From: Polyangiales bacterium
GTDB lineage: Bacteria > Myxococcota_A > Polyangia > Polyangiales > Ga0077539
Direction of reading: 5' to 3'
DNA: 64,000 nucleotides
NCBI GenBank assembly: GCA_041389885.1
Contig: JAWKRB010000006.1
Location: 131,101 to 195,100 of the forward strand
Shown here piece by piece: positions 35,585-64,000 of the stretch. Numbering within the stretch: position 1 is the first letter of the stretch; each line of letters begins with the position of its first letter. The notes under the pieces were generated by a model, which was not told the origin of the DNA, searched no databases, and saw only the letters and a program-made list of their open reading frames with translations. The position numbers were made by a program, and so were the translations under genes.

Positions 35585-36091
35585 CTAGAGGTCGAGCAGG
35601 GGCAGCGAGGTGATGAAGTCGGTCTTGCCGAGCTTCACGCCGTTGTGACGAAGGATCGAGTACGCCGTCACGACGTGAAAGTAGAAGTTCGGCAGGGCCA
35701 GCTGCGTGGCGTACTCGGTCGCCAGGAGCCCCTTGCCCGGCATGAAATTCAGGGGGACCACGCGCGCCTCGGCGCCCGCGAAGTCGGCCTCGTCGAAGCT
35801 CTGGAGGTAGCTGATCACGGCGCGGATGCGGGCGCGCAGGGCCTGCCCGTCGGCCTCGGTGTCGGGGTGCACGGGGGCGTCACGGCCCGAGGCGCGCGCC
35901 GCGAGAAACTTCGCCGCGTCGCAGGCCGCCTGCACCTGGCGGGTGAAGTCGTACTGATCAGGCGCGAGCCTCGCGGTGAGGAACACCGACGGGTCGAAGG
36001 ACCGCTCTTCGGCGAACTGCGTCGCCTTGTCGAACCAACGATCCATCGACTCGAGCACACGAACGACCTGCTGCACGGCCTGAAAGAACAT
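35585..36091 (-). CDS. DUF1993-like four-helix-bundle protein, hypothetical
   Basis: Family-like N-terminus MFFQAVQQVVRVLESMDRWFDKA and a C-terminal NFYFHVVTAYSILRHNG block, weakly recalled. Confidence 0.4.
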   Translation of the reverse strand: MFFQAVQQVVRVLESMDRWFDKATQFAEERSFDPSVFLTARLAPDQYDFTRQVQAACDAAKFLAARASGRDAPVHPDTEADGQALRARIRAVISYLQSFDEADFAGAEARVVPLNFMPGKGLLATEYATQLALPNFYFHVVTAYSILRHNGVKLGKTDFITSLPLLDL

Positions 36092-36238
36092 CGAGACCTC
36101 CTGGGCGGCGGTCCCTAGCAGAGTTCACGACCGCGCGGGTGAGGCGGCAGGGCTTGACGGGAGCAACCCTTACCTTTACGTAAGAGTCCGTTCAGCCCAA
36201 CCCATACCCATGCGTAAGGGTTTGAGCCTACGGAGCAG

Positions 36239-36802
36239 GTGAGTATGTCAGTTCGTCTCCCCATCGCCCAGGAGGTCATCGGCCCGCCCCCGAGCACATC
36301 GGCGGACGCGTCGGCGGAGCTCTTGCGTGTGGGCGACCTGGCAACGCGCACCTCGAAGACCGTCCGCGCGCTGCACCTCTATGAAGAGCTGGGGCTGCTG
36401 CTCCCCGTCGACCGCTCCAAGGGGGGCTACCGGCTCTACGCGGCCGACGCGGTGCTCCGCGTGAAATGGATCTCCCGGCTGCAAGACCTCGGGTTCTCGC
36501 TGCCTGACATCCGGGCGATTCTGCACGCCTGGGAGGCCACGGCGAGCGCGTCGGAGGCCAACGCGCAGATCCGCGCGATCTACCAGCAGAAGCTCCGAGA
36601 CACCGACGAGCAGATCCGCCGCCTGCACGAGCTGCGGCACGAGCTCGACCGCTCCGTCGACTACCTCACCACCTGCAACGTGTGCGACCCCGAGCGGCTG
36701 ATCACGGCCTGCCCGAGCTGCGACCGCCACTGCGGCGACGCCGTGCCCGAAATGGTCGCGGGCCTCCACGGCGCGCGGCACCTCCACCCCGACACGACCT
36801 GA
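36239..36802 (+). CDS. MerR-family transcriptional regulator with a C-terminal Cys cluster (candidate Fe-S / redox sensor for the isc operon)
   Basis: MerR helix-turn-helix (LRVGDLATRTSKTVRALHLYEELGLL), coiled-coil dimerisation helix, and a C-terminal CNVCDPERLITACPSCDRHC (five Cys). Sits immediately upstream and co-directional with iscS. Confidence 0.75.
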   Translation: MSMSVRLPIAQEVIGPPPSTSADASAELLRVGDLATRTSKTVRALHLYEELGLLLPVDRSKGGYRLYAADAVLRVKWISRLQDLGFSLPDIRAILHAWEATASASEANAQIRAIYQQKLRDTDEQIRRLHELRHELDRSVDYLTTCNVCDPERLITACPSCDRHCGDAVPEMVAGLHGARHLHPDTT

Positions 36803-36811
36803 GAAGCAACC

Positions 36812-38041
36812 ATGGCCATCAAGCTCCCCGTGTACATGGACTACCACGCGACGACGCCGATGGACCCGCGCGTCCTCGACGCGATGCTCCCGTACTTCAC
36901 CGAGCGCTTCGGCAACGCCGCGTCGCGCTCGCACCGCTTCGGCTGGGAGGCCGACGAGGCCGTCGGGGTCGCCCGCGAGCAGGTCGCGCGGCTGCTCAAC
37001 GCCGACCGCCCCGAGGAGATCGTCTTCACCTCGGGCGCCACCGAGAGCGACAACCTCGCGATCAAGGGAGTGGCCGAGTTCTACCGCGACCGCGGCAACC
37101 ACATCATCACCACGCGCATCGAGCACAAGGCGGTGCTCGACACGTGCAAGCGCCTCGAGAAGCAGGGCTTCGAGGTCACCTACCTCGAGGTCTCCAAGGA
37201 CGGCGTCGTCGACCCCGACGACCTGCGCCGCGCCATCACCGACAAGACCATCCTCGCGTCGGTGATGCTCGCCAACAACGAGATCGGCAGCGTGCAGCCC
37301 ATCGCCGCCATCGGCGCGATCTGCAAGGAGCGCGGCGTGCTGCTGCACTGCGACGCCGTGCAGGGCGTCGGCAAGGTCCCCTTCGACGTGAAGGCCATGG
37401 GCGTCGACCTCGCGTCGGTGACCGCGCACAAGATGTACGGCCCGAAGGGCGTGGGCGCCCTCTACGTCCGCCGCTCCAAGCCCCGCGTGCGCCTCACCGC
37501 GCAGATGGACGGCGGCGGCCACGAGCGAGGCATGCGCTCAGGCACGCTCAACGTGCCCTCCATCGTGGGCTTCGGCCGCGCGGCGGAGATCGCCCGCCTC
37601 GAGGGGCGCGAGGAGTCGGCGCGCGTCGCGAAGATGCGCGACCGCCTGCGCGACAAGCTCTTCGCCGAGCTCGACGACCTCTTCATCAACGGCGCCTGGG
37701 GCGACGACGCGCGCCTGCCGGGCAACCTCAACGTGAGCTTCGCCTACGTCGAGGGCGAGGGCCTGATGATGGCGATCAAGGACGTGGCGGTGTCCTCTGG
37801 GAGCGCGTGCACCAGCGCCTCCCTCGAGCCCAGCTACGTGCTGCGCGCCGTGGGCGTCGACGAGGAGCTCGCGCACACCAGCATTCGCTTCGGCCTCGGG
37901 CGCTTCAACACCGACGAGGAGGTCGATTTCGTCGGCGACCTCGTCACCCAGAAGGTGAAGAAGCTCCGCGACCTGTCGCCGCTCTACGAGATGGCGAAGG
38001 CCGGCATCGACATCAAGAGCATCGAGTGGGTCGCGCACTGA
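36812..38041 (+). CDS. iscS: cysteine desulfurase IscS
   Basis: Class V aminotransferase; [14 protein letters not shown] (PLP lysine) and active-site loop [14 protein letters not shown]. Confidence 0.9.
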
Positions 38042-38057
38042 GCGCGAGGGAGCAGTC

Positions 38058-38459
38058 ATGGCATACAGCGAAAAAGTCGTAGAGCACGCGGAGAACCCCC
38101 GCAACGTCGGCACCCTCGACGCGAAGGACCCGAACGTCGGCACGGGCCTCGTGGGCGCCCCCGCCTGCGGTGACGTGATGCGCCTTCAGATCAAGGTCGG
38201 CGACGACGGCGTGATCGAGGACGCGAAGTTCAAGACCTTCGGCTGCGGCTCGGCCATCGCGTCGAGCTCGCTGGCGACGGAGTGGCTCAAGGGGAGGACC
38301 CTCGACGAGGCGGCGTCGATCAAGAACACCGACATCGTGCACGAGCTCAACCTCCCGCCCGTGAAGATCCACTGCTCGGTGCTCGCCGAAGACGCCATCA
38401 AGAGCGCCATCGACGACTTTCGGGCGAAGCAGGCGGCGCGGCGCGCCTCGGAGGGCTGA
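38058..38459 (+). CDS. iscU: Fe-S cluster assembly scaffold IscU
   Basis: GAPACGD, LPPVKIHCSVLAED, FKTFGCGSAIASSS. Confidence 0.9.
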   Translation: MAYSEKVVEHAENPRNVGTLDAKDPNVGTGLVGAPACGDVMRLQIKVGDDGVIEDAKFKTFGCGSAIASSSLATEWLKGRTLDEAASIKNTDIVHELNLPPVKIHCSVLAEDAIKSAIDDFRAKQAARRASEG

Positions 38460-38816
38460 GTGATGGTCGAGGCGAGCGAGCGCGCGGCGATGAAGGTCGC
38501 GGTGACGCCCAAGGCCGTCGCGAAGGCCAAGGACGCGCTGAGCAAGCGCGGCACGCCCGGGGCGATGCTCCGACTCGGCGTCCGCGGCGGGGGGTGCTCG
38601 GGCTTCTCGTACGCCATCGAGTTCGCCGACGAGCCCGGTCCCCGAGACCACCTGTTCGAGTTCGACGGGCTGCGGGTCGTGGTCGACCCGAAGAGCCTCG
38701 TGTTCTTGAACGGCACGACCCTCGACTACGAGGTGAAGCTCATGCAGCACGGCTTCAAGTTCGTGAACCCCAACGAGCAGACCGGCTGCGGCTGCGGCGA
38801 GTCGTTCGGGGTCTGA
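38460..38816 (+). CDS. iscA: A-type Fe-S carrier IscA/HesB
   Basis: GGGCSGF ... C-terminal CGCGESF. Confidence 0.85.
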   Translation: MMVEASERAAMKVAVTPKAVAKAKDALSKRGTPGAMLRLGVRGGGCSGFSYAIEFADEPGPRDHLFEFDGLRVVVDPKSLVFLNGTTLDYEVKLMQHGFKFVNPNEQTGCGCGESFGV

Positions 38817-38820
38817 GCGC

Positions 38821-39327
38821 GTGCGCGACCCCTTCGCCGAGCTCGGCGTGCCCCGGCGCTTCGCCCTCCCCATGAAGGAGGTCGCGCAGCGCCACCGCGA
38901 CCTCTCCCGCGCCCTGCACCCCGACCGTCACGCCGCCGGCTCGGCCGCCGAGCGCAGGATCTCCATCGAGCGCGCCATGGCCGTCAACGAGGCCTGGCGC
39001 GTGGTGCGCGAGCCGCTCTCGCGCGCCCTCGCGCTGCTGGAGCTCCACGGCGCGCCGCTGCGAGACGGCGACCGCGCGCCCCCCGCGGTGCTGATGGACG
39101 TGATGGAGCTGCGGGAGTCGCTCGAGTCGGCCCGCGGAGACTCGGCCGCCATCGCCCCGCTCCGGGCGAGGGTCGCCGAGCGCATCGCGCAGGAGGAGGC
39201 CGTGCTGGCCGCCGCCCTCGACCTCGACGAGGTCACCCCCGAGGGCCTCGCGGCGGCCCGCGCCGCGGCGGTCAAGCTGAAGTACTACCGTCGCTTTGAA
39301 GAAGAAGCCGACGCGATGGACGACTGA
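38821..39327 (+). CDS. hscB: Fe-S cluster co-chaperone HscB (J-domain)
   Basis: J-domain with HPD ([11 protein letters not shown]) and a C-terminal helical domain. Confidence 0.8.
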
Positions 39328-39361
39328 TCCGCCGCGGCGCAGAAGGACCCGACACCCTCCC

Positions 39362-41278
39362 ATGGCCCTGTTGCAGATCTTCGACCCGAAGGCGCGCCCG
39401 ACGCCTGTCGGCATCGACCTTGGCACCACGAACTCGCTCGTCGCGTGGCTCGTCGACGGCGAGCCCATGTGCGTTCGCGACTGCGACGACTCGCCGCTGC
39501 TGCCCTCCGTGGTGCACTACCTCGCCGCCGGCGGCGTGGTGGTGGGCGCCGAGGCGCGCGCGAAGGCCGCCCGCGCGCCGCGCGAGACCATCGCGTCGGT
39601 GAAGCGCTTCATGGGGAGGGGCGCCGACGACGCCGAGACCCTGCGCCTCGGCACCTACGAGTTCGCGCCCGCCGTCGAGGGCGAGGGCAACGTCGTGCGC
39701 TTCAAGGTCCACGGGCGCGTGGTGACTCCCGTGGAGGTCAGCGCGGAGATCCTCCGGGTGCTGCGCGAGCGCGCCGAGGAGAAGCTCGCGACCCTCGGCG
39801 GAGCGGTGATCACCGTGCCGGCGTACTTCGACGACGCGCAGCGGCAGGCCACCAAGGACGCCGCGCGGCTCGCGGGCATCGAGGTGCTGCGGCTGCTCAA
39901 CGAGCCCACCGCCGCCGCCCTGGCCTACGGCCTCGACAAGGGGCGCACGCGGGGCACCTTCGCGGTCTACGACCTGGGGGGCGGCACCTTCGACGTCACC
40001 GTGCTCGAGCTCGACGACGGGGTCTTTCAGGTGCGCTCCACCGGCGGAGACGCGCAGCTCGGCGGAGACGACATGGACCGCGCGGTGGCGACGTGGCTCC
40101 TCAGGCGCGCGGAGGTGAGCGACGCCGACCCGACGGCCGTGCGCGCCGCCCTCGACGCCGCCCGCGCCGCGAAGCACACGCTCACCGACGCCGAGACCGC
40201 CGACGTGTCGATCACGCTGGGGGGCAAGGACCTGCGGCTCACGCTGACCCGCGCCGAGTTCGACGCCCTGGTGCTCCCGGTGGTCGAGCGCACGCGCCCC
40301 GCGTGCCGGCGCGCCCTCAAGGACGCCGGGGTGCGCGCCGAGGACCTCGACGGGGTGATCCTCGTGGGCGGCAGCACCCGCGTGCCCCTGGTGCGCACCT
40401 TCGTCCGCGAGCTCTTCGGGGCCGAGCTGCTCACCGACCTCGACCCCGAGCAGGTGGTGGCCTTCGGCGCGGCGCTGCAGGCCGACCTCCTCGCGGCGGA
40501 GTCGCCGGAGCACGACGCGCTGATCCTCGACGTGATCCCGCTCTCGCTGGGCCTCGAGACGATGGGCGGCGTGGCCGAGAAGATCCTCGCGCGCAACACC
40601 ACGATCCCTGCGGCGCGGGCGCAGAACTTCACGACCTACGCCGACAACCAGACCGGCTTCGAGCTCCACGTCGTGCAGGGCGAGCGCGAGCTCGCGGCCG
40701 ACAACCGCTCGCTGGCGCGCTTCACGCTCCGGGGGATCCCCCCGATGCCGGCGGGCGCGGCCCGGCTCGAGGTGACCTTTCGCGTCGACGCCGACGGCCT
40801 GCTCACCGTGACCGCCCGCGAGGAGAACACCGGGGTGACCCAGGAGGTCAGCGTCACGCCCTCGTTCGGGCTCTCGTCCGACGACGTCGAGCGCATGCTC
40901 CTCGACTCGTACGAGTTCGCCGAGGAGGACCTCCTCGCGCGTCAGCTCAAGGAGCGCACCGTCGACGCCGAGCGCGTGCTCGCCGCGACCCGCGTGGCCC
41001 TGGATCGAGACGGCGACCTCCTCGACGAGGACGAGCGCGCCGAGGTCGACGGCGCCGTCGCCATGCTGCAGAAGGCTCTGCAGGACAAGGACTCGCGCGC
41101 GATTCACCTGCGCGTCGAGGGCCTCGACCGCGCCACCCAGCCCCTCGCCGAGCGGCGGATGAACCGCGCGGTGGCGCAGGCGATGGCGGGGCACGACCTC
41201 GGCGAGTTCGAGGCGCTTGTGAAGGACCGGCCCGAGCACCCGCACCTGGCGGCGCTCGCGGCGGAGGAGGTGCGCTGA
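39362..41278 (+). CDS. hscA: Fe-S cluster chaperone HscA (Hsp70 family)
   Basis: [32 protein letters not shown] at 39362 is chosen over the upstream Arg-rich extension of the track ORF. Confidence 0.9.
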
Positions 41279-41655
41279 TGGCCACGGTACGATTCCTCAA
41301 CACCGACGACGGGGTGATGGTGGCCGAGGTGCCGCTGGGCACGTCGCTGCTCGAGGCCGCGCAGGCGGTGCACGCCCCCGAGGGCAGCGCCTGCGGCGGC
41401 GTGTGCGCGTGCTCGACCTGTCACGTGCACGTGAAGGTCGGCGGCGCGCTGCTCTCTGAGATGGAAGACGAGGAGAACGACATCCTCGACAAGGCCTTCG
41501 ACGTGGTGCTCACGTCCCGGCTGGGGTGCCAGGCGCGCATCGAGCGCGAGGGCGTCATCGAGGTGGAGATCACCCGCGAGAGCTTCGACACCTACTACAA
41601 CGAGCACCCCAAGGAGCGCCTCGCCCGCGAGGAGCGGCTCAAGGCTCGGTCGTGA
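41278..41655 (+). CDS. fdx: ISC-type [2Fe-2S] ferredoxin
   Basis: CGGVCACSTCHV ... LGCQ Cys pattern. ATG overlaps the hscA stop (TGATG). Confidence 0.85.
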   Translation: MATVRFLNTDDGVMVAEVPLGTSLLEAAQAVHAPEGSACGGVCACSTCHVHVKVGGALLSEMEDEENDILDKAFDVVLTSRLGCQARIEREGVIEVEITRESFDTYYNEHPKERLAREERLKARS

Positions 41656-43195
41656 CCCGCTCGACGCCGAGCTTCTTCATGCGGCTCTGCAGCGTCGAGG
41701 GCTTGAGGCCCAGGATCTCTGCGGCGCCCCCCGCGCCGTAGACCCTCCCGCGGGTGTGTCGCAGCACGGCACGAACGTGCGCGGCCTCGACCTCTTCGAG
41801 GCTGCGCAGGTCGGCGGCGGGCTCGTCGCGCGCTTCGCGGGCGGGGCGAGGGGACGTCTCGGTCGGCTCCTGCGCGAGCGCGGTGAGCTCGGGGCCGGGG
41901 GAGAGGATCATCGCGCGCTCCAGCGCGTTGCCGAGCTCGCGCACGTTGCCGGGCCAGGCGCGGGCGCGGAGTCGAGCCATGCCCTCGGGGCCGACCCAGC
42001 AGCCCCGGCGCCCCGTGCGCCGCCCGAGGTCGCGCAGGAGCACCTCGCAGAGCGCGGGGAGGTCCTCGGGGCGCTCGCGCAGCGGCGGCACGGTGAGCGG
42101 GAACACGTCGAGGCGATAGAACAGGTCGGCGCGGAACCTCCCTTCGGCGACGGCGCGGGCGAGGTCGACGTGCGTCGCGGCGATGACCCTGGCGTCGACC
42201 CGCGCCGTGCGGTCGCTCCCCACGGGCTCGAAGGTGCCCTCCTGGAGCACCCGGAGCAGCTTGGCCTGCAGGTCGAGCGGGAGCTCACCGATCTCGTCGA
42301 GGAGCAAAGTGCCCCCGTCGGCGGTCTGGAACCGCCCGGCGCGGTCGCGGGTCGCGCCGGTGAAGGCCCCGCGCACGTGCCCGAAGAGCTCGCTCTCGAG
42401 CAGCGCGCCGGGGATCGCGGCGCAGTTGATCTTCACGAAGGGGCGCTCGGCGCGGGCGCTCCAGCGGTGAATCGCGCGGGCCAGGTGCTCCTTGCCCGTG
42501 CCCGTCTCGCCGAGGATCAGCACCGGCGTGTCGGTGCGCGCGACCTGCCGCGCGCGCTCGGCGAGCTGGCGCATCGACGGCGCGCTGGAGCGTGACAGCA
42601 CCCCGTCGTCGTCGCCGTGCACCTCTTCGTCGAGCAGCCGCGCGTGCTCCCGCTGCTGCGCGTGGAGGCGGGCGAGGGCGGCCCGCTGCGCGGCGTTCTC
42701 GAGGGCCAGGGCGAGCACCTGCGCGTAGACCTCGACGAGGTCGACGATCGCGGGGGGAAAGACCTCGCAGCGCGTGCGATCGAGGGTGAGCAGCCCGAGC
42801 GGGCCCTCGGAGGTGAACAGCGGCACCACCATGCACGCGTGGCCGGGGGGGAGGTCGAGCACGCCGTCGAAGGGGTCGCCGTCGCCGTCGCGGTGGTCGT
42901 CTTCGGTGAAGGCCCGCGCCCGCCGCGACGCGATGGCCTCGCGCACCGACGGGAACCTCGAGAGCTCCAAGCTCATCGCGCGGACCCTGCGGTCTGCGAG
43001 CAGCCCGCGGGCGGCGCGCACCACGAGCCGCTCTTCGACCAGCTCGAAGACCGTCGCGAGGTCATAGGGCGCGACCTTCGCCAGCCAGTCGAGGCCGCGA
43101 CGGAGGATCTCATCCGGATCGCCGGTGCCCTGGGTGGCCGAGCGCAGCGTCTCGGTGACCGACCGGGACAACGGCTCAAAGGGCTCGGCGCGCAT
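41639..43195 (-). CDS. sigma-54-dependent transcriptional activator with an N-terminal GAF domain (bacterial enhancer-binding protein)
   Basis: AAA+ sigma-54 interaction domain (GETGTGKE Walker A, ESELFGH GAFTGA motif, LLLDEIGEL, GNVREL). N-terminal GAF-like domain. C-terminal helix-turn-helix. Confidence 0.85.
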   Translation of the reverse strand: MRAEPFEPLSRSVTETLRSATQGTGDPDEILRRGLDWLAKVAPYDLATVFELVEERLVVRAARGLLADRRVRAMSLELSRFPSVREAIASRRARAFTEDDHRDGDGDPFDGVLDLPPGHACMVVPLFTSEGPLGLLTLDRTRCEVFPPAIVDLVEVYAQVLALALENAAQRAALARLHAQQREHARLLDEEVHGDDDGVLSRSSAPSMRQLAERARQVARTDTPVLILGETGTGKEHLARAIHRWSARAERPFVKINCAAIPGALLESELFGHVRGAFTGATRDRAGRFQTADGGTLLLDEIGELPLDLQAKLLRVLQEGTFEPVGSDRTARVDARVIAATHVDLARAVAEGRFRADLFYRLDVFPLTVPPLRERPEDLPALCEVLLRDLGRRTGRRGCWVGPEGMARLRARAWPGNVRELGNALERAMILSPGPELTALAQEPTETSPRPAREARDEPAADLRSLEEVEAAHVRAVLRHTRGRVYGAGGAAEILGLKPSTLQSRMKKLGVERVTTEP

Positions 43196-43255: not shown

Positions 43256-43318
43256 TCACCGAGGGGTGGGTGCGCGTCTCGGGCCCTGATTTCGCTTGAA
43301 ATACAGGGGAATTCAACA

Positions 43319-43334
43319 CGGCACGGGAGCTGCT
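43319..43334 (+). promoter_or_regulatory. candidate sigma-54 (-24/-12) promoter for ahpC-ahpD
   Basis: CGGCACGggagCTGCT matches TGGCAC-N5-TTGC with GG and GC 12 bp apart. It lies about 50 bp upstream of the ahpC ATG and is divergent from the enhancer-binding-protein gene. Confidence 0.5.
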
Positions 43335-43385
43335 CAAGGGGAGTTCGACCTCGCAGATCGCGGGGCGCAACCAGGAGAACAGACC

Positions 43386-43916
43386 ATGCTGAGTGTTGGA
43401 GACCGCCTGCCTTCTTTCTCGCTCAAGGCCGCCGTGAGCCTGGAGCCCGGCAAGGAGTTCGCGGACGTCACCGATGGGTCCTACGAGGGCAAGTGGCGGG
43501 TGCTCTTCGCGTGGCCGATGGACTTCACGTTCATCTGTCCGACGGAGATCATCGAGTTCGGCAAGGCGCACGGTGATTTCGCCGACCGGGACGCGCAGCT
43601 GCTGGGGATGAGCACCGACACCCACCACGTGCACCTCGCGTGGAGGCGACACCACGACGGGCTGCGGGACCTCCCCTTTCCCATGCTCGCCGACACGAAG
43701 CGCGAGCTCTCGAGCGCCCTCGGGATCCTGCACAAGACCGACGGCGTGTGCCTCCGCGCGACCTTCATCGTCGACCCGCAGGGGGAGATCCGCTGGGCCA
43801 GCGTCAACGACCTGAGCGTGGGGCGGAGCGTGCCCGAGGTGCTCCGGGTGCTCGACGCGCTGCAGACCGACGAGCTCTGCCCGTGCAACTGGCAGAAGGG
43901 CGAAGCCACCCTGTGA
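43386..43916 (+). CDS. ahpC: peroxiredoxin, AhpC/TSA family (2-Cys)
   Basis: FTFICPTE peroxidatic Cys and C-terminal resolving CPCNW. AGGAGA ribosome-binding site. Start is inside track ORF 43296..43916. Confidence 0.85.
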   Translation: MLSVGDRLPSFSLKAAVSLEPGKEFADVTDGSYEGKWRVLFAWPMDFTFICPTEIIEFGKAHGDFADRDAQLLGMSTDTHHVHLAWRRHHDGLRDLPFPMLADTKRELSSALGILHKTDGVCLRATFIVDPQGEIRWASVNDLSVGRSVPEVLRVLDALQTDELCPCNWQKGEATL

Positions 43917-43926
43917 GGCGCTGACC

Positions 43927-44448
43927 ATGGAGAACCTCGACGCGCTCCTCGATCGCCTCCCCGACGCCGCGAAGGACCTGCGGCTCAACGTCAAGGCCGT
44001 CCTCGGCGAGAGCTCGCTCACGCCCGCGCAGACCTGGGGCACCGCCGTCGCGTCCGCCATCGCGGCGGACCACCCGGAGCTCCAGCGGGCGGTGACCGAG
44101 GCCGCCCGCGCGCGCGTCGAGGCGCCGGTCCTCGACGACGCCGTCGCCGCCGCGGCGATCATGGGGATGAACAACGTGTTCTACCGGTTTCGGCACATGG
44201 TGCCGGGCTACGAGCAGATCCCCGCGCGCCTGCGCATGAACCGCCTCGGGCGCCCCGCGACGAGCCGCGTGGACCTCGAGCTCTTCTCCCTCGCGGTGAG
44301 CGCGATTCACGGCTGCGAGGCATGCGTGCGCTCGCACGAGAAGGTCGCGCTCGAGGGCGGCCTCTCGCAGCAGCAGGTGTTCGACGCCGTGCGCATCGCC
44401 GCGGTGCTGCACGGCGCCGCGGTCGCGCTGCGCGGCGCGGCGTCCTGA
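43927..44448 (+). CDS. ahpD: alkylhydroperoxidase AhpD-family protein (carboxymuconolactone decarboxylase fold)
   Basis: HGCEACVRSH (CxxxH-type) motif. Located directly downstream of ahpC. Confidence 0.8.
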   Translation: MENLDALLDRLPDAAKDLRLNVKAVLGESSLTPAQTWGTAVASAIAADHPELQRAVTEAARARVEAPVLDDAVAAAAIMGMNNVFYRFRHMVPGYEQIPARLRMNRLGRPATSRVDLELFSLAVSAIHGCEACVRSHEKVALEGGLSQQQVFDAVRIAAVLHGAAVALRGAAS

Positions 44449-45528: not shown

Positions 45529-47001
45529 TCACCGCGCGACGAGGCGCCGCAACGCGCCGATCGCCGCGCGGCCGTCGTCGGTGCGCGCGGCGAGGGCCGC
45601 GAGGGTCGCGGGGAGGCTGAGCGCGAGCGCGAGGTGCAGCGCGAGGTCGAGGGCGAGGGAGCCCGTGCGCGTGGCGCTCCCCGCGACGCCGAGGAGCAGC
45701 GCGGCGGCGGTGATCGCGCCGAACGCCGCGTAGTCGTATCGGACCGGCAGCACCCTGCGCGACGCGGCGTGGAGGCCCACCGCGTAGACCAGGAACACCA
45801 CCGGGCTCACCACCAGCGCGCCGCGAAATCCCCAGCGCTGCACGAGGAACCAGCCCACGACGACGTCGAGCGCCGCGACCAGGGGCTCGAACCACGCGAG
45901 GGCTCGCGCGTCGCCGCCCACGAGCAGGCCGTTGCGAAAGAACTCGCCCATCTCCCGCAGGGCGTACCCGATGGCGACGGAGGGGATCACCCAGCGCGCG
46001 GCGGAGAACGAAGGCCCAGCGACCAGGGACACCAGCTCGGGCGCGAGGAGGGTCAGCCCCAGCGCGGCGCTCGCGTACAGCCCGAAGAAGAGCGTCGCGG
46101 CCCGGGCGTAGCGCGCGGGGCCGTCAGGCTCCGCCCAGACCTCGTACATACGCGCGCCCCAGGCGTTGCGCAGGGGGCTGCCGAGGCTGCTGCTCACCTG
46201 CACCCCGAAGCGAACTCCGAGGGACCACACGCCGACCTCTTCGAGGGTGCAGAACGCGTTGAGGTGCACCGCGCGGGTGTGGCCCAGCGCGATGAGGGCC
46301 AGGGCGCCGGGGAGCAGCGGCCACCCGAAGCGCAGGAGCCGCGCGAGCACGGCGGCGTCGAAGGCGCGCCCGTTCTCTCGGAGCGTGAGGACGCCCAGGG
46401 CGACGGCGTAGAGCGCCGAGGTCACCAGGGATGACAGGCAGATGCCCGCCACGCCGAGGTTCATCGGCACGACGAAGGCGACGTTGAGCGCGAAGCCCAG
46501 CGCGGCGCGGGAGAGGGTCCACGCGACGAAGGCGCCCGCTCGGCCGTCGGCGCGGAGGATGGCGAGGGGCACCTCGAGCACGCCCTGAAAGGCGACGGAG
46601 GCGAAGGTCATTCGCAGCACGTCGGCGCGCGACGCGTCGCGGATCCAGACGCGCGCGAGGGCGGGCGAGGCGAGCACGCCGAACGCGCTGACGAGGGCGC
46701 CCAGCACGCAGAGGGCGAGCACCGTGGTGGAGATCACCCGGCGCCGCTCGGCGGCGTCGGCCGCGGCGCGCACGTTTCGAATCACCGGGTCGGCCAGGGC
46801 CGCGCTGAAGAGCGTCACCGCGGTCAGGTCCGCGGTGTCGAGCAGCTCGAGCACGCCCAGCTCCCGCGCGCCGAGGTGGTGCGCGTAGATGGGCACCATC
46901 ACGAAGCCGAGCACCCGCGTCACCACCATCGCGAGCACGTACGCGCTCGCGTCGCGCGCGGCGCCCGCGCTCGGTGTGTTCGCGGGCGGTGTGGGGGTCA
47001 C
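45529..47001 (-). CDS. MOP-superfamily oligosaccharide flippase (Wzx-like polysaccharide biosynthesis protein)
   Basis: About 490 aa with 12-14 TM helices and Wzx-like loop spacing. Confidence 0.65.
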   Translation of the reverse strand: MTPTPPANTPSAGAARDASAYVLAMVVTRVLGFVMVPIYAHHLGARELGVLELLDTADLTAVTLFSAALADPVIRNVRAAADAAERRRVISTTVLALCVLGALVSAFGVLASPALARVWIRDASRADVLRMTFASVAFQGVLEVPLAILRADGRAGAFVAWTLSRAALGFALNVAFVVPMNLGVAGICLSSLVTSALYAVALGVLTLRENGRAFDAAVLARLLRFGWPLLPGALALIALGHTRAVHLNAFCTLEEVGVWSLGVRFGVQVSSSLGSPLRNAWGARMYEVWAEPDGPARYARAATLFFGLYASAALGLTLLAPELVSLVAGPSFSAARWVIPSVAIGYALREMGEFFRNGLLVGGDARALAWFEPLVAALDVVVGWFLVQRWGFRGALVVSPVVFLVYAVGLHAASRRVLPVRYDYAAFGAITAAALLLGVAGSATRTGSLALDLALHLALALSLPATLAALAARTDDGRAAIGALRRLVAR

Positions 47002-57582: not shown

Positions 57583-58050
57583 ATGATCGAGCAGCGACTG
57601 GATCGATTGCAGGCGATGATGGAGCGCATGCTCGGGGCGATGCTTCGGCTCGCGCGCCCGCCGTGCAGCGCCGTGGACCTGACGCCGCAGCAGTACATGC
57701 TGCTGAAGCTCCTCGACGACGAGGGTCCCATGAGCCTGAGCGCGATGCGCGAGCGCACGTCGGGCGCGCAGAGCACGCTGAGCGAGACCGTCGCGCGCAT
57801 GGCCCGCACCGGGCTCGTGAGCAAGCGCCGCGACAGCGGAGACCGCCGCGCGGTGCGCGTGGCCATCACGGCGACCGCGCGCACGCTGATGCGGCAGCGC
57901 GCGAAGGAGTTTCGCGCTCGGAGCGAGCTGATCCTCTCGTCGCTCTCGCTGGACGAGCAGGAGCGGTACGTCGAGGCCGTCGAGACCCTCGTGACCCTGA
58001 TTGAGCGCGCCGTCGCCCGCGACGGCGCAAGTGAAGAAGAAAGACGCTGA
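57583..58050 (+). CDS. MarR-family transcriptional regulator
   Basis: Winged helix-turn-helix LTPQQYMLLKLLDDEGPMSLSAMRERTSGAQSTLSETVARMARTGLVSKRRDSGDRRAVRVAIT. Confidence 0.8.
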   Translation: MIEQRLDRLQAMMERMLGAMLRLARPPCSAVDLTPQQYMLLKLLDDEGPMSLSAMRERTSGAQSTLSETVARMARTGLVSKRRDSGDRRAVRVAITATARTLMRQRAKEFRARSELILSSLSLDEQERYVEAVETLVTLIERAVARDGASEEERR

Positions 58051-58053
58051 CGG

Positions 58054-59572
58054 ATGATTCGCTACCGCTCCCGCACCGCCCTGCCGCTCCTCCTGGCGAC
58101 GCTCGTCGCGCCGGCCGCGCAGGCGCAGACCCCCGAGGCCCCTGAGACTCCCGCCCGCCCGTCCGTCGCTCCGCCGCCCCCGCCGGAGCTCCCAGCGGTC
58201 CTGCGCGCCCAGCCGGGCGGCATCACCGCCGACCAGGCCGCCCGGCAGGCGGTCACCACCAGCGCGGCGGTGCGCGCGGCGGGCGCCAACGTCGAAGCGG
58301 CCCACGCGGCGCGCGCCGAGGCGGGCCTGTCGATGATCCCGCAGATCAGCCTGTCGGCGCGGTACACGCGCCTCTCAGAGATCGCGCAGCCGAGGCTGAA
58401 CCTCGGCGGCGGCACCTGCGTCGGCCAGGGGGCGCGCTCTTCTCGCAGCTACCCACGGCGCCGGCGGCGCCCTCGAGTGCCCCGCGGGCTCGATGCTCCC
58501 GCCGAGCAACGGGGGCTTCTCCTTCCCGGTGATCCTCGACAACATCGCCTTCCGGGGCACGGTGACCATCCCGATCACCGACATCCCCCTGCGCCTCGCG
58601 CGGGTCTACGAAGCCGCGGGGCTCACCGAGCAGGCCCGGCGCCTCGACGAGGAGGCCGCGCGCAACACCGCCGCCTCCGAGGCGAGGGTGGCCTACTACG
58701 AGCTGCTCCGCGCGCGCGGCCAGCACGCCGTGGCGACGCAGGGCGTCGAGACCGCCGAGGCGCACCGTCAGGACCTCGCCCGCTTCGTCGAGGTGGGCAC
58801 GGTGGCCCGGGTCGAGCTCATGCGCGTCGAGGCGCTCCTCGCCGACGCGCAGCGCCTCGAGATCGCGGCGCGGCAGGGCGTCGCGATGGCCGAGGCGCAG
58901 CTCCGGCAGCGCCTGCACCTCGAGGGCGACGCGCCGATCCTCCTGGGAGAGTCCCTCGAAGAGATCCCCGCGCCGCCGACGAACCTCGCCGAGCTCATCG
59001 ACCGGGCGTGGCGCAGCCGCCCCGAGATCGCCAGCCTGGAGCGCCAGAGCGGCGCCCTCGACGCGAACCTCGCCGCGACGCGCGCGGGCATCTGGCCGAG
59101 CCTCGCCGGGGTGTTCAACGTCGACATCGCGAACCCCAACCAGCGCTTCATCCCCGCGACGCCCGACTTCAACACCACCTGGGACGCGACGCTGCAGCTC
59201 TCCTGGTCGCCCAACGCGGCCCTGGTGGCGGGGCGCACGGCCTCGCGGCTGGAGTCGCAGCGCGCGGTGCTCCGCGCGAGCATCCAGCAGCTGCGGGAGG
59301 GCTTCGAGATGGAGGTGCGCAGCGCCTACCTCGGCGCGCAGACCGCCGCCGCGAGCGCCGAGGCCGCGCGCCGCCAGCTCCTCGCGGCCGACGAGAGCTA
59401 CCGGGTGCGCCGCGAGCGATTCGCGGTGGGCAGCGCGATCTCGTCCGACCTCACCGACGCGGAGACCGACCTGCTCCGCGCGCGCTTCGCGGTGGTGAAC
59501 GCGCTGGTGGACGCGAGGGAGAGCCTCGCGAGGCTGCGTCGGGCGGTGGGCGAGCGCGAGGTCGAGAACTGA
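58054..59572 (+). CDS. TolC-family outer-membrane efflux protein, with the reading frame disrupted near 58400-58500
   Basis: Signal peptide plus TolC-like N-terminus in frame 1 (58054..~58412). The remainder of a TolC-like protein is in frame 2 (58493..59572, track ORF). Protein-like sequence passes through the third frame in between. Confidence 0.55.
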
Positions 59573-59627
59573 CCCGCGTGGCGGCACCCCGGGCGCCCGC
59601 GTGAGGCGCCCGGGTGCTCCGCTCAGA

Positions 59628-62588
59628 TCACTGGAACTCGACGATCATTTCCTGGCTGGGCGCGCCGCAGGTCTGCGTGTTCACGCCGCCCCAGTTGGGG
59701 TTGCTCCCGCCGATGCAGGGGCGAACGATGTAGCCCGAGGGGCAGTTGTTGCCGCTGCAGGTGCTCGGCGGATTGAGCCAGAGCTCCCCGCTGTAGCGGC
59801 TGCCGCAGAGCGACCAGTTGTTGCCGTCGCAGGCCATGTTGAAGTCGGTGCCGCTGCGGATCGCCGCCGCGAGGCCGTTGACCACGGTGGGGTTGGTGCA
59901 GCTCACACCCGTGGTGTTGAAGGTCCCGCGAATGGTCACGCGGGTGTACGAGTTGGTGAGGGTCGCACGCCAGTCGTTCCAGGCCGTGCACTGGGCGCCG
60001 TCGGAGCCCTGCCCCGACACGAAGCTCTGCTGGTAGCGGTTCGAGGTGACGACGCACGCGCCGTTGGCGCACCGGCCGCTCGAGCACGTGACCCCGCAGG
60101 CGCCGCAGTTGCTGGCGTCGGTCTGGGTGTTGACCTCGCAGCCGTTGCTCGGGTTGTTGTCGCAGTTGCGGAACGCGCCGGTGCACGAGCCGACCGCGCA
60201 CGACCCCGCGGTGCAGGCCGCGACCGCGTTCGCGAGCGTGCAGCGGTTGCCGCACGCGCCGCAGTTGTTGACGTCGGTCCCGCCGTTGACCTCGCAGCCG
60301 TTGGCGGGGTTGTTGTCGCAGTCGCGGAAGGCCCCGGTGCACGCCTGGAGCTGGCACGCGCCGCCGGTGCACGCCGAGGACGCGTTGGCGAGGCTGCAGA
60401 CCCGGCCGCAGGAGCCGCAGTTCGCGGCGCTGGTGTTCGTGTTGACCTCGCAGCCGTTGGCGGGGTTGTTGTCGCAGTCGCGGAAGCCGGCGTTGCACAC
60501 GAAGGAGCAGGCGCCCGCGGCGCAGACCGGCGAGGCGTTCGCCGGCGCGGTGCAGGCCGTGCCGCACAGGCCGCAGTTGCGCGGGTCGCTCTGCGTGCTG
60601 GTGCAGCTCCCGGCGCACTCGGTCAGCCCCGTCGCGCAGGTGGCGCGGCAGACGCCGCCCGAGCAGACCTGGCCCGCGCCGCAGGCGTTCCCGCACGCGC
60701 CGCAGTTCGCCCGGTCGGTCTGGGTGTTGATCTCGCAGCCGTTGAGGGGGCTCATGTCGCAGTTGGCGAAGCCCGTGTTGCAGGTCGTGAGGGCGCACGC
60801 CCCGGCGGTGCAGGCCGAACCGCCGTTCGGAGACTGGCACGCGAAGCCGCAGGCGCCGCAGTTGGTCACGCTGTCGAGGCGGGTCTCGCAGCCGTTGGTC
60901 GCGTTGCCGTCGCAGTCGCCGAAGCCCGCGTCGCACTGAAACGAGCATCGCCCCGCGCAGAAGGGCGTCGCGTTGGCGGGGCGGGCGCAGGCGTTGCCGC
61001 AGGCGCCGCAGTTGGCGGGGTCGTTGGCGAGGTCGCGGCAGCTCCCGCCGCAGTCCGACTGACCGGCGACGCAGGTCGCGACGCAGGTCCCCGCGGCGCA
61101 GCGCTGCCCCGCGCCGCAGGTGTTGCCGCAGGCGCCGCAGTTGGCGTTGTTCGCGCTGGTGTTCACCTCGCAGCCGTTCGCCGGGTTCATGTCGCAGTCG
61201 GCGAAGCCCGCGTTGCACGCCCCGAGGGCGCAGCCCGAGCTCACGCAGGTGCCGCTCGCGTTCGCGAAATTGCACCGCACGCCGCACCCGCCGCAGTTGG
61301 TGAGCCCGTCGAGGGAGGTCTCGCACCCGTTCGACGCGTCGCCGTCGCAGTCGCCGAAGCCGCGGTTGCAGGTGATGCCGCAGGCGCCCGCGGCGCAGAA
61401 CGCGACGCCGTTCGCGGGGGTCGGGCAGGCGTTGCCGCAGCCGCCGCAGGCGGCGACGTCGGTGTTGGGGTCGCGGCAGGTGCCGCCGCAGTTCTGGGTC
61501 CCCATCTGGCAGCTCGCGGCGCAGGCGCCGGCGGAGCAGACCTGCCCCGCGGCGCAGGCCGCGCCGCAGGCGCCGCAGTTGGCGCGGTCGGTCTGGGTGT
61601 CGGTGCAGGCGGTGCCGCACGCGGTCTGTCCCATCGGGCACGAGATCACGCAGGCGCCGGCCTCGCACACCTGCCCCGCGGCGCAGGCCGTGCCGCAGGC
61701 GCCGCAGTTGGCGCGGTCGGTCTGGAGGTTCGCGCACACGCGCGGCCCCGTCATCGGCGCGCAGGTGGTGAGGCCCTGCGAGCAGGTGAGCCCGCAGGCG
61801 CCCATCGAGCAGACCTCGCCGCTGTCGCAGACGTTGCCGCAGGTGCCGCAGTCTCCGCGGTCGGTCTGCGTGTCGACGCATCGACCCGAGCACACCGTCT
61901 GGCCCGTCGGGCAGCGCACCTGGCAGTTGCCCGCCACGCACGCCTCACCGCTCGCGCACGCGCGCCCGCAGCTCCCGCAGTTCTGCGCGTCGTTCTGGGG
62001 GTCGGTGCAGAGCCCGCCGCAGGCCTGCTGCCCCGCGGGGCAGTTCGCGACGCAGGCGCCGCGCTCGCAGATCTGACCCGCCGCGCAGGCCGTGCCGCAG
62101 GCGCCGCAGTTCGTGCGATCGATCTGGGTGTTCGTGCAGAAGCGGTCGCTCCCGCCGTCTCCGCCGCCCGTCGCCGCGCACTGCGCGAGGCCGGGGCCGC
62201 ACTCGAGGGTGCACTGGCCCATCGAGCAGACCAGGCCGGCGCTGCAGGCCGCGCCGCAGGCGCCGCAGTTGCCGCGGTCAGTCTGGAGGTCGACGCAGCG
62301 CCCGGCGCACGCGGCCTGCCCGGTCGGGCACGCGGGCTGGCACATCCCCGCCACGCACACCTCGGCGCGCTGGCACGCGCTCCCGCAGGCGCCGCAGTGG
62401 TCGGGGGAGGCCTGCGTATCGACGCAGGCTCCTCCGCAGGCGGTCTGCCCCGCGGTGCAGCTCACGTCGAGGGACGCGTCCATGCCGCCGTCCGAAGAAG
62501 TGCCGCCGACGACCGCGGAGTCTGTGCATCCCGCCGCGAACATCGCGGCGGCGAGTATCCAAGCGCATCTCAGTCTCATGAACCTCAC
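59628..62588 (-). CDS. giant cysteine-rich repeat lipoprotein (986 aa) with two alternating repeat types (NCGxCGxxC and DCDxNxxNGCE) and a distinct C-terminal domain
   Basis: Lipobox AAMFAAGC. About 20 NCGxCG-type repeats interleaved in the second half with (F/G)xDCDxNPxNGCE repeats. The C-terminal approximately 150 aa is unrelated to the C-terminal domain of the 47-51 kb pair. Confidence 0.75.
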   Translation of the reverse strand: MRFMRLRCAWILAAAMFAAGCTDSAVVGGTSSDGGMDASLDVSCTAGQTACGGACVDTQASPDHCGACGSACQRAEVCVAGMCQPACPTGQAACAGRCVDLQTDRGNCGACGAACSAGLVCSMGQCTLECGPGLAQCAATGGGDGGSDRFCTNTQIDRTNCGACGTACAAGQICERGACVANCPAGQQACGGLCTDPQNDAQNCGSCGRACASGEACVAGNCQVRCPTGQTVCSGRCVDTQTDRGDCGTCGNVCDSGEVCSMGACGLTCSQGLTTCAPMTGPRVCANLQTDRANCGACGTACAAGQVCEAGACVISCPMGQTACGTACTDTQTDRANCGACGAACAAGQVCSAGACAASCQMGTQNCGGTCRDPNTDVAACGGCGNACPTPANGVAFCAAGACGITCNRGFGDCDGDASNGCETSLDGLTNCGGCGVRCNFANASGTCVSSGCALGACNAGFADCDMNPANGCEVNTSANNANCGACGNTCGAGQRCAAGTCVATCVAGQSDCGGSCRDLANDPANCGACGNACARPANATPFCAGRCSFQCDAGFGDCDGNATNGCETRLDSVTNCGACGFACQSPNGGSACTAGACALTTCNTGFANCDMSPLNGCEINTQTDRANCGACGNACGAGQVCSGGVCRATCATGLTECAGSCTSTQSDPRNCGLCGTACTAPANASPVCAAGACSFVCNAGFRDCDNNPANGCEVNTNTSAANCGSCGRVCSLANASSACTGGACQLQACTGAFRDCDNNPANGCEVNGGTDVNNCGACGNRCTLANAVAACTAGSCAVGSCTGAFRNCDNNPSNGCEVNTQTDASNCGACGVTCSSGRCANGACVVTSNRYQQSFVSGQGSDGAQCTAWNDWRATLTNSYTRVTIRGTFNTTGVSCTNPTVVNGLAAAIRSGTDFNMACDGNNWSLCGSRYSGELWLNPPSTCSGNNCPSGYIVRPCIGGSNPNWGGVNTQTCGAPSQEMIVEFQ

Positions 62589-62646
62589 CTCAGCGTGGGT
62601 AGAGGTGGAGTTGACCAGAGCGCTCGGCGGCTCACAAGGCGCGCGG

Positions 62647-64000
62647 TCAGCGACGCTTCGCGAAGACCTCGGCGAAGCCCGTGTGGTAGCGACCCGCCGC
62701 GAATTCTTCGCTGCGGATCACGCCGCGCAAGAACGCGAGGTTGGTCACCAACGGCGCGACCTTCGTGGCCTCGAGGGCCGCGTGCAGCCGGTCGATGGCC
62801 TCGGCGCGGGTCTCTCCCCGCGCGATCACCTTCGCGATCATCGGGTCGTAGTACGGCGTGACCTTGCCCGGCGCGCGCACGCCCTCGTCGACGCGCACGC
62901 CTTCGCCCGAGGGCCACGCGAGCTCGGCGATGTCGCCGGGCTTCGGGATGAACCCCTTGGCCGGATCCTCGGCGTAGACCCGCGCCTCGATGGCGTGGCC
63001 CGTCGAGGTCGCCGCGAGGAGCTCCGGCGCGAGGGCCTCGCCCGAGGCCACGCGGAGCTGGTGCTCGACGAGGTCGAGCCCGAAGGCCATCTCCGTGACC
63101 GGGTGCTCGACCTGGATGCGGCAGTTCATCTCGAGGAAGTAGAACTCCTCGCGCTCGGAGTCCCAGATGAACTCGCAGGTGCCCGCGCCGACGTAGCCCG
63201 CGGCCTTCGAGATGCGCACGGCGGCGTCGAGGATCTCGCGGCGGTGCCGCGCTCCGTCGGCGCTCAGCGCGAAGGCGGGCGCGGGAGACTCCTCGACGAT
63301 CTTCTGGTGACGCCGCTGCAGCGAGCACTCGCGCTCTCCGAGGGCCACGACGTTGCCGTGGGCGTCGCCGAAGATCTGCACCTCGATGTGCCGCGGGTTC
63401 TGGACGTAGCGCTCGATGTAGACCCGCCCGTCGCCGAAGGCCTGCGCGCCGCGGTCGGCGCAGCTCTTGAGGGCGCGCTCGAGGGAGGCGTCGTCCTTCA
63501 CGACCTGCATCCCGATGCCGCCGCCACCGCCCACGGCCTTTACCAGCGAAGGATATCCCGTGCTCGCGACGGCGGCGCGGGCCTCGTCGAGGGTCTCGAT
63601 GGGACCGTCGGTGCCCGGCACCGGCGCAACGCCAGCCTCCAGCGCCGTGCGCCGAGACTTCAGCTTGTCGCCCAGGCGGTCGAGGACCTCCGGGGGAGGG
63701 CCGATCCACACCAGCCCCGCGTCGCGCACGGCGCGGGCGAAATGGCTCTTCTCGCTGAGCAGCCCGTATCCGGGGTGCACCGCCTCGACGCCGTGCTTGC
63801 GCGCCGCGGCGAGCACCGCGTCGGCGTTGAGGTACGACTCCTTCACGGACGCGGGGCCGATCAGCTCGCTCACGTCCATCTCGCCTGGGTGCAGCGCCTC
63901 GGCGTCGGCCTCGGAGTGCACGCCGACGGCGAGGACGCCCAGTCGCCGACAGGTCCGCGCCACACGCGCGGCGATCTCGCCACGGTTCGCGATGAGGATC
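62647..64000 (-). CDS. accC: biotin carboxylase (acetyl-CoA carboxylase subunit AccC); the N-terminus lies beyond the window end
   Basis: ATP-grasp motifs (GGGGIGM, EMNCRIQVEHPVTE). The reverse complement of the window end encodes ILIANRGEIAARV, the canonical AccC N-terminus. Stop at 62647. Confidence 0.85.
   Translation of the reverse strand, partial: ILIANRGEIAARVARTCRRLGVLAVGVHSEADAEALHPGEMDVSELIGPASVKESYLNADAVLAAARKHGVEAVHPGYGLLSEKSHFARAVRDAGLVWIGPPPEVLDRLGDKLKSRRTALEAGVAPVPGTDGPIETLDEARAAVASTGYPSLVKAVGGGGGIGMQVVKDDASLERALKSCADRGAQAFGDGRVYIERYVQNPRHIEVQIFGDAHGNVVALGERECSLQRRHQKIVEESPAPAFALSADGARHRREILDAAVRISKAAGYVGAGTCEFIWDSEREEFYFLEMNCRIQVEHPVTEMAFGLDLVEHQLRVASGEALAPELLAATSTGHAIEARVYAEDPAKGFIPKPGDIAELAWPSGEGVRVDEGVRAPGKVTPYYDPMIAKVIARGETRAEAIDRLHAALEATKVAPLVTNLAFLRGVIRSEEFAAGRYHTGFAEVFAKRR

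Follow-up and report, generated by a model that had tools for sequence, protein, structure and literature searches.

The stretch of DNA analysed here, 64 kb from the genome of a Polyangiales bacterium (contig JAWKRB010000006.1; referred to below as the window, with a G+C content of 72.6 %), harbours an isc operon for iron–sulphur (Fe–S) cluster assembly, the first gene of which encodes a MerR-family protein (here termed the regulator). Across its relatives, this regulator was found to be encoded directly upstream of Fe–S biogenesis operons, to carry a loop with four invariant cysteines (the Cys4 loop) and to be preceded by a conserved palindromic operator. By analogy with IscR, RisR and SufR, the balance of the evidence leans towards an autoregulated repressor that would sense Fe–S status via a cluster on the Cys4 loop and would thus fill the role which these proteins have elsewhere. 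Both the repressor logic of Fe–S homeostasis and the MerR scaffold are known; the sensor loop and the operator are undescribed. In the literature searched, no publication was found that describes a MerR-type isc or suf regulator, and database entries give the family generic names ('MerR family', 'copper efflux regulator').

Genomic linkage of the regulator to Fe–S biogenesis operons

Relatives of the regulator were collected from a search of 5.8 billion proteins, which returned 578 sequences (including those of Polyangiales and Sandaracinaceae genomes and of Sandaracinus amylolyticus), and from a profile search, in which 1.84 billion representative proteins yielded 198 clusters at E <= 1e-30. 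When one genome per species was scanned, relatives were located in at least 374 species genomes. The proteins closest to that of the window are encoded by Polyangiales metagenome-assembled genomes.

Linkage was assessed for the best 80 of these 374 genomes, all of which are Polyangia-type, and for 13 further relatives that were inspected; as the resulting 93 loci were picked by a search for the regulator, isc operons without it in these lineages would escape the count. An Fe–S biogenesis operon was present directly downstream of the regulator gene in 93/93 loci, being of the ISC type in 89 and of the SUF type in four. In all 80 Polyangia-type loci, iscS is the next gene downstream of the regulator gene and shares its strand, with the rest of the operon following to the contig limits, while nine further members head iscSUA-hscBA(-fdx) operons in Kofleriaceae, in a marine group of low GC content and relatives of this group, and in three other lineages. 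The ISC-linked members are thus distributed over Polyangiales, Sandaracinaceae, Kofleriaceae and marine relatives, and the recurrence of the gene upstream of isc, which an earlier reading of the window (the original prediction) had proposed as a check, was borne out. The remaining four loci, which are independent of each other, form a separate clade in the phylogenetic tree and head SUF operons encompassing sufB, sufC, sufD, sufU and sufT, mostly with a desulfurase gene; assemblies GCA_040960315.1 and GCA_005239795.1 belong to this clade. This sister clade, together with the palindrome common to ISC- and SUF-linked members (see below), extends the finding beyond what had been predicted.

No other regulator gene was found inside the 93 operons, and no efflux or metal-resistance gene was linked to the regulator in any inspected locus. 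With this linkage and a conserved upstream operator, the protein falls into the functional class of Fe–S homeostatic regulators that are encoded with an Fe–S biogenesis operon.

Fold and family of the regulator

The regulator gene (36245..36802, forward strand; 185 aa) was assigned to the MerR family by Pfam (MerR_1, E = 1e-13, in addition to MerR-DNA-bind and MerR). The AlphaFold2 (AF2) model comprises helices at residues 29–36, 40–48, 68–81, 86–98 and 102–143, with a predicted local distance difference test (pLDDT) score of >90 for blocks over residues 31–90. The protein displays the N-terminal winged helix-turn-helix (HTH; approximately residues 27–94) and the long antiparallel coiled-coil dimerization helix (residues 102–143) by which MerR-family members are recognized, and Foldseek matched the model to SoxR (2zhg and 2zhh among the top hits), CadR, CueR and MerR with a probability of 1.0. 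Pfam, AF2 and Foldseek therefore agree with the original prediction that the operon is headed by a MerR-family protein and not by an Rrf2-family IscR. The regulator was not assignable to the Rrf2 family, its relation to IscR being one of role, not of family, and a tblastn search of the 64-kb window with approximate Escherichia coli IscR and NsrR queries revealed no Rrf2-family gene; the sole weak match (57694–57840) is assigned to the MarR family by Pfam.

Within the MerR family, the regulator scored below every NCBIfam equivalog cut-off, i.e. those of CueR (70.7 versus 147.4), ZntR (63.6 versus 167.95), MerR (55 versus 150.85), CadR (54.6 versus 151.45), SoxR (TIGR01950; 52.4 versus 116.9) and HspR (NF047375; 30.3 versus 105). 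CueR and ZntR are the top-scoring named families, and many homologues are labelled 'copper efflux regulator' by JGI (the Joint Genome Institute), as would be expected of a CueR/ZntR-type metal-responsive activator that distorts a suboptimal promoter to induce Fe–S assembly when Cu, Zn or Cd poison clusters. Such an activator is considered improbable, as the scores are far under the cut-offs, the ligand pattern of CueR and ZntR is absent from the regulator, and efflux or metal-resistance genes are missing from every locus inspected. The hidden Markov model alignment to CadR was interpreted as placing a conserved Ala region, rather than a cysteine, at the position which provides the cross-subunit Cys in heavy-metal sensors.

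An HspR-like chaperone repressor, a candidate prompted by the presence of hscBA, was rejected on the basis of its score and of the SUF-linked operons, which are headed by family members and lack chaperone genes. The palindrome of the regulator also differs from the HspR-associated inverted repeat (HAIR), through which HspR controls chaperone operons.

The Cys4 loop

The candidate sensor loop of the regulator (residues 144–168; 36674..36748, forward strand) directly follows the dimerization helix and has the arrangement C144-x2-C147-x8-C156-x2-C159-x2-H162, with a variable C163. The original prediction had the protein ending in the Cys-rich peptide CNVCDPERLITACPSCDRHC; this peptide is indeed present, at residues 144–163, but the protein continues for 22 residues beyond it. 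This extension includes a conserved P-x-(L/M)-V-A-G-L-H helix, and the region encoding the short C-terminal helix and tail (36749..36802, forward strand) specifies invariant P168 and G173 as well as V171 and A172, which are at least 90 % conserved (AF2 helix at residues 169–175).

Conservation of the cysteine cluster, which had likewise been put forward as a check, was shown for four of its five cysteines. In an alignment of 60 diverse sequences covering all subgroups, the four cysteines of the CxxC-x8-CxxC arrangement are the only invariant C-terminal columns, whereas the fifth (C163) shifts position or is missing among relatives. A separate alignment of 35 sequences revealed C144, C147, P149 and C159 to be invariant and C156, H162 and R151 to be at least 90 % conserved. 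A His residue located two to five positions past the last Cys is common, yet not invariant, and the second CxxC pair is often CPxC. The exact CxxC-x8-CxxC spacing was present in 54/150 of the best profile-search clusters, many of the others representing close spacing variants or fragments.

Sequence and structure alignments of the regulator to solved MerR proteins (MerR, CadR, CueR, SoxR and PbrR) end at approximately residue 138–139, i.e. before the Cys loop. For this reason, the loop, although positioned where CueR, CadR and SoxR have their metal or cluster loop, is taken from these alignments to be a different module. Pfam returned nothing credible for the Cys module when C-terminal fragments from four subfamilies were searched, and Foldseek retrieved no PDB match to its fold from an AF2 model of the fragment (mean pLDDT 66.6). 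Judged from sequence conservation, the Cys4 loop is the only conserved candidate sensor of the family. The conservation of the cysteines and the linkage to isc together support the predicted role of the protein as an alternative Fe–S or redox-sensing regulator of the operon.

If the four cysteines were purely structural, the regulator would be a constitutive or a partner-controlled repressor, titrated for example by an ISC component or a chaperone. A conserved, disordered and IscS-like N-terminal motif, M-x-x-(R/K)-L-P-I, in Polyangiales-type members would suit such an arrangement, but it was found in 0/117 Kofleriaceae-type members and is absent from the three SUF-linked sequences compared, and these proteins retain both the linkage and the operator. 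As the four cysteines are, moreover, the only conserved candidate sensor, a purely structural function is regarded as very improbable.

A conserved palindrome upstream of the regulator gene

Two repeat copies, each an inverted repeat, had been noted downstream of a TTGACG sequence in front of the regulator gene. Both copies proved to be real and correspond to operator 1 (36166..36187, forward strand; ACCCTTACCTTTACGTAAGAGT) and operator 2 (36200..36221, forward strand; ACCCATACCCATGCGTAAGGGT), the latter being located 34 bp downstream of the former. Each exhibits one mismatch to the 22 bp palindrome ACCCTTAC-N6-GTAAGGGT, and, when up to three mismatches are allowed, the 64-kb window contains no other match to this palindrome, the number expected from shuffled sequences being 0.01.

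In the 300 bp that precede the regulator gene, the palindrome was identified at a threshold of at least 12/16 positions in 73/81 regions (first count) or 74/80 loci (both-strand count). At the more stringent threshold of at least 13/16 positions, the 25 kb upstream of regulator genes yielded 86 matches and the remaining 911 kb of these loci none, which suggests that the regulon is very small. From 116 sites, a count matrix was derived that reads A-ACCCTYAC-SYNNRS-GTNAGGGT-T and extends the dyad to 24 bp; the search introduces a bias at the 16 specified positions of this matrix but not at its flanks and centre, from which the extension of the dyad stems. The ISC operons of Kofleriaceae (AACCTTACGTAAACGTAAGGGTT) and the SUF operons (e.g. 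AACCTGACGTTAACGTGAGGAT) are preceded by this palindrome as well, so that a single operator is common to both groups. The RisR operator (TKGAC-N7-GTCCW) occurs neither in any of the 81 upstream regions nor anywhere in the window. It is very probable that the regulator controls the operon through the conserved palindrome, and the position of the operator upstream of the regulator's own gene points to autoregulation.

Putative promoter and operator geometry

The promoter elements described here are proposed on the basis of cross-species conservation. A putative -35 hexamer, TTGACG (36154..36159, forward strand), is situated six bases before operator 1, and TTGAC is kept upstream of the gene in all but a few of the 80 loci. 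Operator 1 itself contains the sequence TACGTA (36177..36182, forward strand) at a 17 bp spacing from TTGACG. By eye, TACGTA was seen to form the operator centre in most, though not all, of the loci in which the operator starts at offset +12 from TTGAC, and to vary in other arrangements; because most of the former loci keep it, TACGTA is regarded as the candidate -10 element. The transcription start is accordingly predicted to be near 36189, which would place operator 2 at approximately +11 to +32, in the early transcript.

Among related loci, the operator starts most commonly at offset +40 to +49 from TTGAC, as does operator 2 of the window. Offset +12, that of operator 1 of the window, was observed for 15 site-to-TTGAC pairs across the related loci, including the closest relatives of the window, while at offsets -21 to -27 the operator abuts the -35 element. 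Most loci exhibit the layout TTGACA-N17-TAGAnn, with the operator 10–15 nt further on. Where a -10 element can be read, the spacer is approximately 17 bp and the operator starts 1–15 nt after the -10, as exemplified by TTGACA-N17-TATGTA-N14-operator in one locus (L075) and by TTGACA-N17-TAGGAT-g-operator in a SUF-linked locus (L084).

Classical activation by MerR proteins involves a dyad centred in a 19–20 bp spacer (PMC11672702). The variable offsets and the spacers of approximately 17 bp do not conform to this arrangement, and the predicted operator placement argues for a plain repressor over a classical MerR-type activator. The spacer length, and the location of most operators downstream of the -10, also speak against the CueR/ZntR-type activator considered above. 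With operators placed variably and, as predicted, at the start site or past it, and with 17 bp spacers, the regulator is proposed to repress simply by occlusion or as a roadblock, and is considered likely, from this putative geometry, to act mainly as a repressor.

Proposed mechanism of regulation

In the proposed model, a dimer of the MerR-fold regulator would bind the 22–24 bp palindrome (A-ACCCTYAC-N6-GTRAGGGT-T) and thereby repress its own operon, regulator-iscSUA-hscBA-fdx. In the window, operator 1 would cover the spacer and the -10 region of the TTGACG promoter, and operator 2 would lie approximately 10–30 nt into the transcript. Sensing would be the task of the CxxC-x8-CxxC loop, located where the dimerization helix ends, and its likeliest cofactor would be an Fe–S cluster supplied by the operon's own machinery. 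The cluster-loaded form would bind DNA and repress, and when clusters are scarce or destroyed, as under iron limitation or in the presence of oxidants, the apo form would release the DNA, resulting in induction of the operon. This logic would equal the negative feedback exerted by IscR, RisR and SufR, transferred to another protein scaffold. These three are the characterized dedicated regulators of Fe–S operons, and all are Fe–S proteins that repress in their holo form (PMC9973013, PMC11672702). Their precedent, the Cys4 loop as the only conserved candidate sensor and the confinement of the family to the operons of two unrelated Fe–S biogenesis machineries make a cluster-loaded repressor the most economical model. 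On this analogy, an Fe–S cluster is judged a little more probable as the cofactor than all other options taken together.

Several observations weigh against this model. At the threshold of at least 12/16 positions, 7–8 of the 81 upstream regions lack a site in a simple match count. A scan for a strict sigma-70 consensus found no promoter in the region 35900–42000, and both the -10 assignments and the repressor geometry that depends on them in the lineage of the window are putative. In a minority of loci, the operator is situated between the -35 and -10 elements (offset +7), which is nearer to the MerR-type arrangement; these few loci would be in keeping with the CueR/ZntR-type activator. The Cys loop was modelled by AF2 with low confidence (pLDDT 54–65, and the mean of 66.6 given above for the isolated fragment). 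Finally, two CxxC pairs, the second of which is often CPxC, are also typical of rubredoxin-like sites or zinc knuckles.

This last point leads to the possibility that, with the same regulator and operator, the Cys4 loop binds one metal ion (either Zn2+ or Fe2+, in a rubredoxin- or zinc-knuckle-like site) instead of an Fe–S cluster. Oxidation or metal loss would then alter DNA binding and induce Fe–S assembly under oxidative stress or iron shortage. The eight-residue distance between the CxxC pairs and the frequent CPxC in the second pair correspond to the shape of mononuclear Cys4 sites, a His following the last Cys is common, and the linkage and operator evidence would fit such a site equally well. 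However, a purely redox-sensing Zn2+ would not report Fe–S supply, which is the signal of all characterized dedicated isc and suf regulators (PMC9973013, PMC11672702), and the family is confined to Fe–S biogenesis operons in the 93 loci rather than being associated with general oxidative-stress genes. A mononuclear site is therefore considered unlikely, although its chance is appreciable, and a cluster-binding repressor is retained as the preferred interpretation.

Comparison with known regulators

SoxR, the only MerR-family Fe–S protein listed in a 2024 metallostasis review (PMC11672702), resembles the regulator in its MerR fold and in having all Cys ligands in a loop right after the dimerization helix of one subunit. 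The two differ in the ligand motif, which is CIGCGCLSxxC in SoxR (PMC11672702) versus CxxC-x8-CxxC in the regulator; in agreement with the equivalog score, the CX2CXCX5C motif of SoxR is not present in the latter. Furthermore, SoxR activates soxS from a long-spacer promoter, whereas the putative promoters of the regulator have a 17 bp spacer, with operators at or after the start, and its targets are Fe–S biogenesis operons.

The regulator resembles IscR and RisR in its location at the head of an Fe–S operon, in its apparent autoregulation via palindromes overlapping the promoter and in its Cys-rich sensor. It differs from them in fold (MerR versus Rrf2), in the operator sequence and in the ligands, with three Cys, with or without a His, in Rrf2 proteins versus Cys4 in the regulator. 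In Myxococcus xanthus, which belongs to the same phylum but to another class, the isc operon is without a regulator gene, and RisR, an Rrf2 protein, is encoded first in suf and acts as a repressor of isc as well as of suf via TKGAC-N7-GTCCW (PMC9973013). SufR, an ArsR/DeoR-type protein of cyanobacteria and actinobacteria, is comparable to the SUF-linked clade in being a dedicated cluster-sensing repressor encoded beside suf. It has another DNA-binding fold and another Cys spacing, and no sequence relation to the regulator was detected.

Over the HTH and the coiled coil, the sequences nearest to that of the regulator are those of CueR, ZntR, CadR and MerR. The regulator is distinct from these sensors in that its scores are under their cut-offs, their Cys/His ligand residues are not conserved, efflux linkage is lacking and the operators are outside a 19–20 bp spacer. 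HspR, CarH and GlnR/TnrA are MerR-fold plain repressors that occupy operators overlapping the promoter; they are without a Cys4 loop and respond to a chaperone, to B12 or light, and to glutamine synthetase, respectively. The MerR-like iron regulator MliR was also considered and set aside as unrelated in design, since it is without cysteines or an effector domain.

The broadest form of the proposal is that of an undescribed Fe–S homeostasis scaffold, in which a MerR-fold protein with a cluster on a CxxC-x8-CxxC loop acts as a promoter-occluding repressor and was recruited to ISC across Polyangia-type Myxococcota and to SUF in a sister lineage, with one operator kept throughout; the odds of this full proposal being correct are considered to be even. 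Fe–S biogenesis is essential, and its feedback control is known mainly via IscR in enterobacteria, other solutions being RisR (M. xanthus) and SufR (cyanobacteria and actinobacteria). If the proposal is correct, a MerR-based sensor present in hundreds of species would constitute a further independent solution to such feedback control, in which one sensor family controls ISC in some lineages and SUF in another. It would also be the second MerR subfamily with an Fe–S cofactor, after SoxR, and a clear example of a MerR protein with a metal loop acting as a simple repressor. The defined 22–24 bp operator, the four candidate ligands and the homologue in S. amylolyticus provide experimental handles, and the system bears on the question raised for M. 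xanthus (PMC9973013) of how Fe–S supply is controlled in members of the phylum with differently organized isc operons.

Operon layout and neighbouring genes

Pfam and NCBIfam upheld the predicted order of the seven genes at 36150–41655, i.e. the MerR-family gene, iscS, iscU, iscA, hscB and hscA, with fdx last, all of which are co-oriented on the forward strand and closely packed. The ATG of the regulator gene (36245) is preceded by GGAG at 36232–36235. The cysteine desulfurase gene iscS (36812..38041) matched the NCBIfam IscS equivalog with 671 bits (cut-off 548), the scaffold gene iscU (38058..38459) matched TIGR01999 with 222 bits (cut-off 192), and the gene for the IscA-type A-type carrier (38460..38816) matched TIGR00049 with 117 bits (cut-off 58.8). 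For the co-chaperone gene hscB (38821..39327), matches to TIGR00714 (66.7 bits; cut-off 46.75) and to Pfam HSCB_C were obtained. The chaperone gene hscA (39362..41278; start codon approximate) matched TIGR01991 with 819 bits (cut-off 708). The last gene, fdx (41278..41655), encodes an ISC-type [2Fe-2S] ferredoxin with the protein start MATVRFLN, and was identified by Pfam Fer2 in a search of a stretch 42 nt shorter than the full gene. The stop codon of hscA and the ATG of fdx overlap (41278–41281), which suggests translational coupling of the two genes.

Upstream, a DUF1993 gene on the minus strand (35585–36091) is divergent from the regulator gene, and the 153 bp intergenic region is common to this gene and the operators. 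The upstream neighbour changes between loci, and co-regulation of DUF1993 with the operon is therefore not conserved. Downstream, a gene at 41639–43195 on the minus strand is convergent with the operon, its 3′ end overlapping that of fdx by 17 nt. It encodes an activator with GAF, sigma54-AAA+ and HTH_8 domains that is NorR-like, though below the cut-off, and is divergent from ahpC (43296–43916) and an ahpD-like CMD gene (43927–44448). Both the domain architecture of this activator and its linkage to ahpCD match those of the M. xanthus peroxide sensor PexR (PMC12754779).

Elsewhere in the window, ARAGORN reported an 82 nt tRNA-Ala(cgc) on the minus strand (45850–45931), where Rfam was silent; this is probably a false positive within coding sequence. 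A scan of the whole window at Rfam gathering thresholds returned no RNA family. The MarR-family gene mentioned above (57583–58050) is followed by two large ORFs (open reading frames) of 516 aa (58054–59604) and 1086 aa (59601–62861), neither of which has a Pfam match.

Two of the SUF-linked loci, L084 (8001–15484) and L087 (8001–15601), have the regulator-suf operon directly after a cluster of ribosomal-protein genes, rpoA and rplQ, and both operons carry an extra desulfurase gene and an A-type carrier gene ahead of sufBCD.

Lastly, the disordered N-terminus of the regulator, M-x-x-(R/K)-L-P-I-(A/V) (36245–36270), is similar to the N-terminus of IscS, M-A-x-K-L-P-(I/V)-Y (36812–36837). Among loci L001 to L080, a regular-expression search identified the N-terminal motif in 53/80 regulators and 50/80 IscS proteins. 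The resemblance could be the footprint of a gene insertion, reflect a translation-start context common to both genes or represent a short linear motif.

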